Positions 15,387-17,345 of a stretch of 38,344 bases of DNA are shown here, piece by piece. This stretch comes from a virus (lineage: Duplodnaviria > Heunggongvirae > Uroviricota > Caudoviricetes): IMG/VR virus record IMGVR_UViG_2740892016_000005; one strand, written 5' to 3'. The stretch's first letter is position 1. Each line of letters opens with the position of its first letter. Both the position numbers and the translations under genes were made by a program. The notes beneath the pieces are model-generated. The model searched no databases, had not been told where the DNA came from, and saw nothing but the letters and a program-made list of their open reading frames with translations.

Positions 15387-17345
15387 ATGCAGGCTGGTCA
15401 CCAGAGTGACGCGGATATTTATATTTATGACGAGATTGGTTTCTGGGGTGTTACAGCGAAGCAGTTTATCAGTGATCTGAATGCACTGGGCGATATCACC
15501 CACATTAATCTCCATATTAATTCACCGGGTGGCGATGTCTTTGAAGGCATCGCCATTTTTAATGCGCTGAAAACACATGGTGCGTCCATTACCGTTTATG
15601 TCGACGGTGTGGCGGCGTCAATGGCGTCGGTCATTGCGATGGTGGGAAACCCGGTCATTATGCCGGAAAACACCTTCATGATGATTCATAAACCATTTGG
15701 CTTTACGGGCGGTGATGCGGAGGACATGCGCACCTATGCCGACCTGCTCGATAAGGTTGAGGCGGTTCTGTTACCCGCTTATGCACAGAAAACCGGGAAA
15801 ACCACCGATGAAATTGCTGCCATGCTGGCGGATGAGACCTGGATGTCCGGTGCCGAATGTCTGGCACATGGATTTGCTGATCAGGTAACGCCAGCCGTTA
15901 AGGCAATGGCATGTATTCAGTCAAAACGTACAGAGGAATTTAAAAAGATGCCGGAATTCATTCGAAACATGATTACTCCGCCACGCAACAGTGCTCCACG
16001 CGTACAGGATAATGAACCTGTAGCCTCCCGGACGCCAGTGCAGGCAGCAGCACCCGTGGTGGATGAAAACAGTATCCGTGCGCAGGTACTGGCAGAGCAA
16101 AAAGCGCGTGTAAACGGTATTAATGATTTGTTTGCCATGTTTGGCGGGCGTTATCAGACGCTGCAGGCTCAGTGTCTTGCCGATCCTGAATGTTCGCTGG
16201 AGCAGGCCCGCGAAAAGCTGTTGAACGAGATGGGGCGCGAGTCCACGCCATCCAATAAAAATACCCCGGCTCATATTTATGCCGGAAACGGTAATTTTGT
16301 GGGGGACGGGATCCGCCAGGCGCTGATGGCGCGTGCCGGATTTGAAAAAAACGAACGTGATAATGTCTACAACGGGATGACCCTGCGTGAATATGCCCGT
16401 ATGTCACTGACTGAACGGGGGATTGGGGTTTCCAGTTATAACCCGATGCAGATGGTCGGTGCGGCGTTCACACACAGTACGTCTGACTTCGGTAATATTC
16501 TGCTGGATGTTGCGAACAAAGCCATTCTGCAGGGCTGGGAAGATGCCCCTGAAACCTATGAACAGTGGACGCGGAAAGGTCAGTTGTCTGATTTTAAAAT
16601 TGCCCATCGTGTGGGTATGGGGGGCTTCAGTGCTCTGCGTCAGGTGCGTGAAGGGGCGGAATATAAATACGTCACCACCGGAGATAAACAGGCCACTATT
16701 GCACTGGCGACCTATGGCGAGCTGTTCAGTATCACCCGTCAGGCCATTATCAATGATGATCTGAATATGCTGACCGATGTCCCGATGAAACTGGGCCGTG
16801 CGGCGAAATCCACTATTGCCGATCTGGTTTATGCCATTCTGACGTCTAACCCGAAAATCTCCACAGATAATGTAAGTCTGTTCGATAAAGCGAAACATGC
16901 AAACGTACTGGAGAGCGCTGCAATGGACGTGGCATCGCTGGATAAAGCCCGCCAGTTGATGCGTGTTCAGAAAGAGGGGGAGCGTCATCTGAATATTCGT
17001 CCTGCGTTCGTACTGGTACCGACGGCGATGGAGTCTGTTGCTAACCAGGTCATTCGCTCCTCAAGTGTCAAGGGGGCTGACATTAACGCCGGTATTATTA
17101 ACCCGGTGAAAGATTTTGCGACCGTTATTGCAGAGCCTCGTCTTGATGATAACAGCCAGACCACTTTCTACCTGGCTGCGTCCAAAGGCTCCGATACGAT
17201 TGAAGTGGCTTATCTCAACGGTGTGGATACGCCATATATTGATCAGATGGAGGGCTTCAGTGTGGATGGCGTGACAACGAAAGTGCGTATTGACGCCGGT
17301 GTCGCGCCAGTTGATCACCGCGGTCTGGTGAAATGTACGGCGTAA
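15387..17345 (+). CDS. Prohead protease (ClpP/S14-like) fused to HK97-fold major capsid protein
   Basis: ORF 15126..17345 is open through the portal 3' end; the likely start is ATG 15387 (MQAGHQSDADIYIYDEIGF...). N-terminal protease-like domain (INSPGGDVFEGIAIFNAL...), linker, then a capsid-like C-terminal ~350 aa. Start uncertain. Confidence 0.8.
   Translation: MQAGHQSDADIYIYDEIGFWGVTAKQFISDLNALGDITHINLHINSPGGDVFEGIAIFNALKTHGASITVYVDGVAASMASVIAMVGNPVIMPENTFMMIHKPFGFTGGDAEDMRTYADLLDKVEAVLLPAYAQKTGKTTDEIAAMLADETWMSGAECLAHGFADQVTPAVKAMACIQSKRTEEFKKMPEFIRNMITPPRNSAPRVQDNEPVASRTPVQAAAPVVDENSIRAQVLAEQKARVNGINDLFAMFGGRYQTLQAQCLADPECSLEQAREKLLNEMGRESTPSNKNTPAHIYAGNGNFVGDGIRQALMARAGFEKNERDNVYNGMTLREYARMSLTERGIGVSSYNPMQMVGAAFTHSTSDFGNILLDVANKAILQGWEDAPETYEQWTRKGQLSDFKIAHRVGMGGFSALRQVREGAEYKYVTTGDKQATIALATYGELFSITRQAIINDDLNMLTDVPMKLGRAAKSTIADLVYAILTSNPKISTDNVSLFDKAKHANVLESAAMDVASLDKARQLMRVQKEGERHLNIRPAFVLVPTAMESVANQVIRSSSVKGADINAGIINPVKDFATVIAEPRLDDNSQTTFYLAASKGSDTIEVAYLNGVDTPYIDQMEGFSVDGVTTKVRIDAGVAPVDHRGLVKCTA

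Follow-up and report, generated by a model that had tools for sequence, protein, structure and literature searches.

How does a phage whose head protease is joined to its coat protein in a single gene avoid making one protease for every subunit of its shell, and where does translation of such a gene begin? These questions are raised by a gene in the virus record IMGVR_UViG_2740892016_000005 (Caudoviricetes), whose 38,344 nucleotides, analysed here as one stretch and called the window below, are those of a lambdoid prophage. On the + strand of the window, one frame runs free of stop codons from 15117 to the TAA at 17343-17345. A sequence-only reading of the window had started this open reading frame (ORF) at the ATG at 15387, from which it encodes 652 amino acids without interruption, and had contrasted its make-up of ClpP-like protease, linker and capsid domain with the separate genes of lambda. 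We find that the single ORF with its protease, linker and capsid domain is real and not a sequencing artefact, and that the most likely full coding sequence, for protease, linker/scaffold and major capsid protein, occupies 15318-17345 (+ strand; 675 amino acids, 73.6 kDa). That said, a fused gene of this type is already known: contrary to the contrast drawn earlier, the feature is not unusual, being a named, curated family that is very common in E. coli. The fusion as such thus carries little weight, the copy in the window being an ordinary and apparently intact member of a common gene type. The only part that might be new is a conserved site inside the gene, at which a second, protease-free product may be initiated, and this we offer as a testable proposal rather than as a result.

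One frame for protease, putative scaffold and capsid protein

Residues are numbered here in the 675-residue form, except that domain coordinates taken from Pfam follow the 652-residue form. Annotation with hidden Markov models (HMMs), which the sequence-only reading had suggested as a check, recovers both of the domains that it had named, Pfam CLP_protease at residues 23-168 (E = 4.6e-36) and Phage_capsid_4 at residues 354-649 (E = 7.4e-55), some 185 residues further on and with no stop between them; a weaker match to Mu-like_gpT (E = 3.7e-08) falls within the Phage_capsid_4 region. Pfam, NCBIfam and solved ClpP structures together place a ClpP-type (S14) serine protease domain at residues 20-195 (15375-15902, + strand). 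In particular, NCBIfam NF045542, "head maturation protease, ClpP-related", matches this part with E = 3.5e-64, solved ClpP structures align to it down to E = 4e-16 with the AASM, IHxP and GFxD motifs in register, and the only protease families matched are ClpP and its ClpP-fold relatives (SDH, NfeD, SppA). The catalytic triad, Ser101 (15618-15620), His124 (15687-15689) and Asp188 (15879-15881), is intact in these alignments.

The protease is followed by a variable linker rich in Pro, Ala and Gln (residues 196-248; 15903-16061, + strand) that is predicted to be disordered. Namely, it is rich in insertions and deletions, its identity to relatives is only 28-66%, and its AlphaFold confidence (predicted local distance difference test, pLDDT) is below 50 over residues 196-247. 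Next comes a helical segment at residues 249-312 (16062-16253, + strand), delimited by AlphaFold and by conservation, with helices at 250-273, 280-288 and 294-309, block pLDDT values of 58-85 over 251-310 and a conservation of 39-80%. We regard it as a candidate scaffolding (delta-like) domain, a role suggested by its position and by what is reported for Gifsy-2. In the alignment, a variable junction, NKNTPAHIYA (residues 313-322; 16254-16283, + strand), is a hot spot of insertion and deletion between a conserved ...LG...TPS motif and an NGN-x-x-GD motif, which makes it a candidate region for maturation cleavage.

The remainder, residues 323-675 (16284-17342, + strand), is the major capsid protein domain, assigned by Pfam and profile matches to the Mu gpT / Phage_capsid_4 family. 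A profile built from 16 relatives matches the solved capsid proteins 8rkc/8rkx (E = 1e-09) and 9jod (E = 5.3e-08), and these matches, together with the family models, suggest that the domain has the HK97 fold. One point weighs against this assignment, in that there is no confident three-dimensional model of the capsid fold and family HMMs and profile matches must carry it. Namely, AlphaFold2, run on the 675-residue protein from an alignment of 30 sequences at 62-99% identity, was confident for the protease (block pLDDT 73-88, with a dip at about 121-140) and is usable only for it and for the helices at 250-309, the pLDDT of residues 308-675 being below 50.

That the frame is unbroken in nature, and not only in this record, can be seen from 86 related loci, namely 7 phage records and 79 genome contigs of Enterobacterales, Pasteurellaceae, Pseudomonas and Shewanella: 81 of them carry protease through capsid in one tblastn segment and one ORF, at identities down to about 50%. 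What is more, a search of 1.84 billion cluster representatives returned more than 100 clusters (formed at 50% identity) with the full-length architecture; their proteins are 640-730 residues long, 36-48% identical to the window protein, and align to it without a break between residues of about 20 and 672.

The fused protein matches NCBIfam NF045540 over its full length and above the curated cut-off (984.8 bits against 475; residues 32-674 align to positions 2-651 of the 652 in the model), with the ClpP and capsid domains in one frame, as this family requires; PHROG 133 matches it as well. With 398.7 bits against a cut-off of 525, it is not a member of the related family NF045541. In phages mEp460, cdtI, Ayreon, Tritos and others the DNA matches at 98-99.7% identity, and the protein is 99% identical to those of mEp460, cdtI and Ayreon, 72% to that of Fels-1 and 57% to those of the Pseudomonas phages MD8 and F10. 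With the Gifsy-2 protein STM1034.3n it shares 70% identity across residues 1-651 of 652. The Gifsy-2 gene was reportedly described by Effantin and colleagues in 2010 (Virology 402:355) as a "tripartite capsid gene", and the ORF of the window is very probably its ortholog in E. coli prophages of the mEp460/cdtI type. Counted by the product name given by the Prokaryotic Genome Annotation Pipeline (PGAP), the gene is present in 2125 of 5426 complete E. coli genomes, at up to six places per genome. A fusion of ClpP and gpT has also been described in 34% of Paracoccus siphovirus prophages (PMC6536676).

Two further observations concern individual copies. The closest genome copy, in E. coli Z247 (NZ_CP021207.1), differs from the window by 2 mismatches in 10 kb; in it, codon 334 (window 16317) has changed from CAG to TAG, and PGAP labels the gene a pseudogene with an "internal stop", whereas the same codon is intact in the window. 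The fused gene is, moreover, a mosaic. Compared with Gifsy-2 and Fels-1, identity is 62-63% in the protease part and 84-90% in the capsid part; the comparison with an Stx2d phage gives 90% and 72%, respectively. Recombination has therefore taken place inside the fused gene, around the linker.

One product or two, and where translation begins

We turn to the question of how many proteins the gene makes. An ATG at 15948, coding for Met211, lies in a flexible stretch (by AlphaFold) directly after the protease domain, and 10 nt before it stands AGGA (15934-15937, + strand), the conserved core of a putative internal ribosome-binding site. Initiation there would yield a nested in-frame gene (15948-17345, + strand) for a scaffold-capsid protein of 465 amino acids (50.8 kDa) that lacks the protease. 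The simplest way to read the "tripartite gene" is, of course, that no internal initiation takes place and that a single polypeptide is made, with protease and scaffold attached to every capsid subunit. In that case the conservation of AGGA and the ATG would have another cause, for instance a translational pause at the domain border or a need of the protein itself for Glu/Asp and Met. The pattern at synonymous sites speaks against this. Among relatives of at least 50% identity, the clade in which Met211-Pro212 is invariant, 80 of 81 distinct sequences carry AGGA, and no other Shine-Dalgarno-like 4-mer in the gene reaches 90% conservation. At Glu206 all 67 of 67 sequences use GAG, a codon whose share is 10-51% at the 11 other conserved Glu columns, and where this Glu is replaced, by Gln (CAG) or Lys (AAG), the codon still ends in AG and AGGA is retained, or the motif moves by one base to AGGAG. 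Across the gene, 281 conserved columns have degenerate codons; just two of them use a single codon throughout, Lys203 (AAA) and Glu206 (GAG), and both lie just 5' of ATG 15948. The ATG and the motif also occur together. The loci obtained, among them those from two independent scans of viral contigs aimed at relatives lacking Met211, are mostly of the window's own clade and give 83 distinct contexts, of which 80 contain both elements and 3 neither, with no case of one lacking the other; only those 3 sequences, with Thr or Ala in place of Met211, inform the negative side of the count. Finally, local RNA structure in the 70-nt context of ATG 15948 (-6.8 kcal/mol) is weaker than at any other of the 26 in-frame ATGs (-8.2 to -25.6 kcal/mol), and both NF045541 and PHROG 4523 align to the window protein only from about residue 210-224 onwards.

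AGGA and ATG 15948 being conserved at synonymous sites, an internal ribosome-binding site is therefore the simplest reading of them, and we favour, with some confidence but well short of certainty, initiation at this ATG and a nested 465-residue product. Several points weigh against it. The spacing of 10 nt, though still usual, is close to the upper limit and above the optimum. Relatives at 36-48% identity, fusion proteins like the one studied here, have Ala, Val, Ile or Thr at the position of Met211, and a nested start can therefore not be a general property of this architecture. The literature we searched documents no separate product, and what is said here of start codons, nested product and cleavage site derives from sequence. 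The Nu3 gene of lambda, where the nearest GGAG is about 16 nt upstream of the ATG, is uninformative as a comparison. Taken together, we consider a single polypeptide possible, but rather unlikely.

If the nested start is real, the shell would consist largely of scaffold-capsid precursors, comparable to gp5 of HK97, and a minority of subunits would carry the protease, drawn into the procapsid through the sequence that the two products have in common, much as gpC and Nu3 of lambda have the same C-terminus. How much protease is made relative to coat protein would depend on the initiation of translation, and the solution that lambda found in C and Nu3 would have been reinvented in a gene that holds the coat protein as well. 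Going by what is established for HK97-type assembly and reported for Gifsy-2, precursors would assemble around the portal with the helical scaffold and the protease parts inside, after which the protease would remove everything N-terminal of the capsid domain, probably by a cut near residues 313-322 that would leave about 39 kDa; on DNA packaging the shell would expand, and trimers of the decoration protein would cement it. A nested start, if confirmed, would explain how a phage with its protease fused to the coat avoids one protease per subunit.

The beginning of the full-length product is a separate matter. The sequence-only reading had noted that the frame is open for about 260 nt into the portal gene, and had called the start ambiguous for this reason. 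The open stretch indeed measures 270 nt 5' of 15387, overlapping the portal gene, whose stop codon is at 15371-15373, and ambiguous the start is; the choice of ATG 15387, however, is probably wrong, a GTG at 15318, 69 nt upstream, being the better supported start. Five nucleotides before this GTG lies a perfect Shine-Dalgarno sequence, AAGGAGG (15306-15312, + strand), and the arrangement is kept across Enterobacterales: relatives have AAGGAG(G) 5-6 nt before a GTG or ATG that is 19-24 codons upstream of a conserved Trp, the start codon being ATG in four genera. Residues 2-23 of the resulting protein read PQRNDRSRSTPTTSPKNNSWFR, and three codons in this extension, those for Ser20-Trp21-Phe22 (15375-15383, + strand), between the portal stop and ATG 15387, are conserved at the protein level. 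Namely, in 74 non-redundant relatives the Trp21 codon is TGG in all 74, the residue after it is always Phe or Tyr, and the position of Ser20 is Ser in 66, encoded by both codon families (AGY in 26, TCN in 40). AlphaFold, with a block pLDDT of 73-81, has residues 22-26 form a strand that adjoins the strand 31-36 of the protease domain, and more distant homologues begin just 2-4 residues before the Trp. The codon aligned to ATG 15387, in turn, is ATG in 45 of the 74 relatives and ATC, ATT, TTA, CTC or TTT in the other 29, among them Gifsy-2 (ATC), Fels-1 and MD8. With Ser-Trp-Phe/Tyr conserved upstream of it and 29 of 74 aligned codons not being start codons, initiation must therefore lie upstream of ATG 15387, and we strongly infer that it is at GTG 15318, giving the 675-residue product, with the Ser-Trp-Phe strand at its N-terminus likely forming part of the protease domain. 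PGAP gives the same bounds, 15318-17345, for the near-identical copy in E. coli Z247, and the 675-residue form is the commonest in databases, with one cluster of 8230 members.

It could still be argued that ATG 15387 (15387-15389, + strand) is the true and only start and that the protein has 652 residues. It is the first ATG past the portal stop, 13 nt downstream of it, so that translational coupling is conceivable, and several GenBank phage records annotate this form, which weighs against the longer one. In particular, the Ayreon, mEp460 and cdtI records use the downstream ATG, and they name the gene only "protease" or only "major capsid protein". That said, no Shine-Dalgarno sequence precedes this ATG, and it sits within a hairpin (minimum free energy of the context, -18.7 kcal/mol), while the three residues before it are under selection at the protein level, as the switches between Ser codon families attest. 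Given these facts, the many relatives whose aligned codon could not initiate and the well-kept ribosome-binding site of the GTG, we hold a start at ATG 15387 to be unlikely; the codon is probably that of an internal residue, Met24. The evidence therefore supports the 675-residue form for annotation, and the portal gene most likely shares its last 56 nt, in a different frame, with the fused gene.

Finally, a missed frameshift or stop behind the single frame, or programmed frameshifting from the portal gene as the source of protease-capsid protein, which might be suggested by the 270 nt of open frame within the portal gene and by at least 14 database ORFs of 1080-1159 residues that join portal, protease and capsid, is extremely improbable, given a fusion that is unbroken in near and distant relatives alike, a change of frame at five different junctions in the portal-fusion proteins that were read, a required shift of +1 and a strong ribosome-binding site of the gene's own. 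The public portal-protease-capsid ORFs, at about 99% identity, are an observation in their own right. Programmed portal frameshifting was rejected as their origin, the junctions differing and having no common slip site; as the frame switches at different positions, these ORFs are therefore best explained as sporadic single-base insertions or deletions in the 270 nt (window 15117-15386) that are open in both frames.

The genes around the fusion

The window has the gene order of a lambdoid prophage: the Q antiterminator, lysis genes, small and large terminase, a small W-like gene, the portal and the fusion gene, followed by a DUF2190 gene, a small head-tail gene, homologs of lambda Z, U, V, G, T, H, M, L, K, I, J and lom, and then tail fibres. 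The portal gene (13865-15373, + strand, with the coordinates that PGAP gives in a near-identical E. coli prophage) matches Pfam Phage_portal_2 (E = 1.3e-81) and NCBIfam TIGR01539, portal_lambda (E = 2.6e-136), and its last 56 nt are shared, in a different frame, with the beginning of the fused gene.

The sequence-only reading had stated that there are no separate scaffold or decoration genes. For the scaffold this stands, as none lies between the portal and the tail genes. For decoration it does not: a separate gene for a head decoration (cement) protein of 107 amino acids lies at 17432-17755 (+ strand), with GGAG 6 nt before its ATG. It matches Pfam Phage_cement_2 (E = 9.2e-21) and the PHROG 122 "head decoration" family (E = 4.4e-47), and genes at the equivalent position occur in Gifsy-2, in MD8, where it is annotated "head decoration protein", and in mEp213; compared by sequence with solved structures, the protein gave no significant match. 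Records often call this gene "hypothetical" or "membrane protein", and the present evidence gives it and its neighbours their names.

Directly after the capsid gene, a pattern scan finds a terminator-like hairpin, GGCCC-GTAA-GGGC followed by T7 (17369-17389, + strand), and the equivalent site is annotated as a terminator in the Ayreon and mEp213 records. A second terminator-like hairpin with a T-run, at 19798-19821, comes directly after V, the major tail gene. The two hairpins are internal to the late operon and may serve to adjust how much of the most abundant proteins is made, or to stabilise the mRNA.

A few other genes deserve mention. The 91-residue protein encoded at 17748-18023 matches the Pfam family "Gifsy-2", PF13856 (E = 1.8e-17), and, weakly, lambda FII (Phage_attach, E = 0.0018); records name it "DNA breaking-rejoining protein" or "ATP-binding sugar transporter", apparently wrongly, the likelier role being head-tail joining. 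At 24632-25375, a near-identical E. coli record annotates the lambda K homolog, 97% identical over 199 residues, with 48 residues more at the N-terminus, and its start may be over-extended. On the - strand at 5743-7194, in an island of low GC content (0.36-0.40) between the Q antiterminator and the lysis genes, is a 483-residue AAA_15 / OLD-like ATPase with PADLOC matches to the candidate defence family HEC-04 (E = 3.9e-47) and to ATPase-Toprim (E = 2.5e-22), which looks like a defence moron. Another low-GC stretch (0.32-0.36), at the end of the prophage, encodes on the - strand (34533-36311) a 592-residue protein with a cytidine/deoxycytidylate deaminase domain and a match to PADLOC "dCTPase" (E = 2.2e-127), probably a nucleotide-depletion defence gene.

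Comparison with lambda, HK97 and Gifsy-2

The sequence-only reading had seen in this locus a head module of other ancestry joined to a lambda-type tail. The tail is indeed of the lambda type, with identities to lambda Z, U, V, G, T, H and M of 40, 53, 55, 33, 38, 26 and 56%, and to L, K, I and J of 93, 97, 78 and 90%, and the protease-capsid and decoration genes are indeed unlike those of lambda. In particular, by BLASTP the fused protein has no significant match to lambda C (E = 0.39) or Nu3 (E = 3.5), and neither the fused protein against lambda E nor the decoration protein against lambda D gives any match at E values up to 10; with hhalign, the protease part reaches lambda gpC with a probability of only 57% (E = 1e-4), over the protease part alone. 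The scaffold segment was also considered as a relative of lambda Nu3/C, and this was rejected, the matches not being significant. What has to be revised is the position of the break. The large terminase is only 24% identical to lambda A and the portal only 22.5% to lambda B, but judging by their profile matches (for the terminase, GpA_ATPase, E = 8.4e-72, and GpA_nuclease, E = 5.1e-85), both belong to lambda families, and the break in ancestry is therefore not between head and tail. Rather, the block of protease, scaffold, capsid and decoration is of another lineage, with the break inside the head module.

In its logic, the block nonetheless resembles that of lambda. The functional order is the same, a protease, a (here putative) scaffold in the frame of the protease, a capsid protein and a trimeric cementing protein, and the protease gene overlaps the end of the portal gene, as in lambda, where C and B have 20 nt in common; a genuine internal start would add a nesting that follows the logic of Nu3 inside C. 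The differences are that the protease of lambda is of family S49 and that of the window of family S14, and that in lambda the capsid protein has a gene of its own, with D before E, whereas in the window the decoration gene comes after the capsid domain.

With HK97, the locus shares the fusion of a scaffold, here a candidate one, to the N-terminus of the capsid protein, which the prohead protease would remove as in gp5, and the proposed 465-residue nested product would have the same layout as gp5. Unlike HK97 gp4, the protease of the window is ClpP-type and covalently joined to the precursor rather than encoded by a separate gene, and in Pfam and NCBIfam searches the fused protein had no match to the HK97-type (S78) prohead protease family. 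In addition, shells of the Gifsy-2 type are reportedly cemented by the decoration protein, as against the cross-links of HK97. A second type of fusion, NF045541 "prohead protease/major capsid protein fusion protein" together with PHROG 4523, is homologous in scaffold and capsid, from about residue 210-224 to the end, and differs in its N-terminal part.

The closest of the known systems is Gifsy-2 itself. It has the same three parts in the same order, 70% identical over the full length, with a lambda-family portal before them and a DUF2190 decoration gene after, then tail genes like Z, U and V. Namely, the order portal, fusion, decoration, head-tail joining, Z, U, V is identical in the window and in Gifsy-2, and is found again in MD8 and Ayreon. 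The difference is only allelic, the protease part being 62% identical and the capsid part 84%. Should the nested start prove true, it would link the assembly schemes of Gifsy-2, lambda and HK97 in one series.

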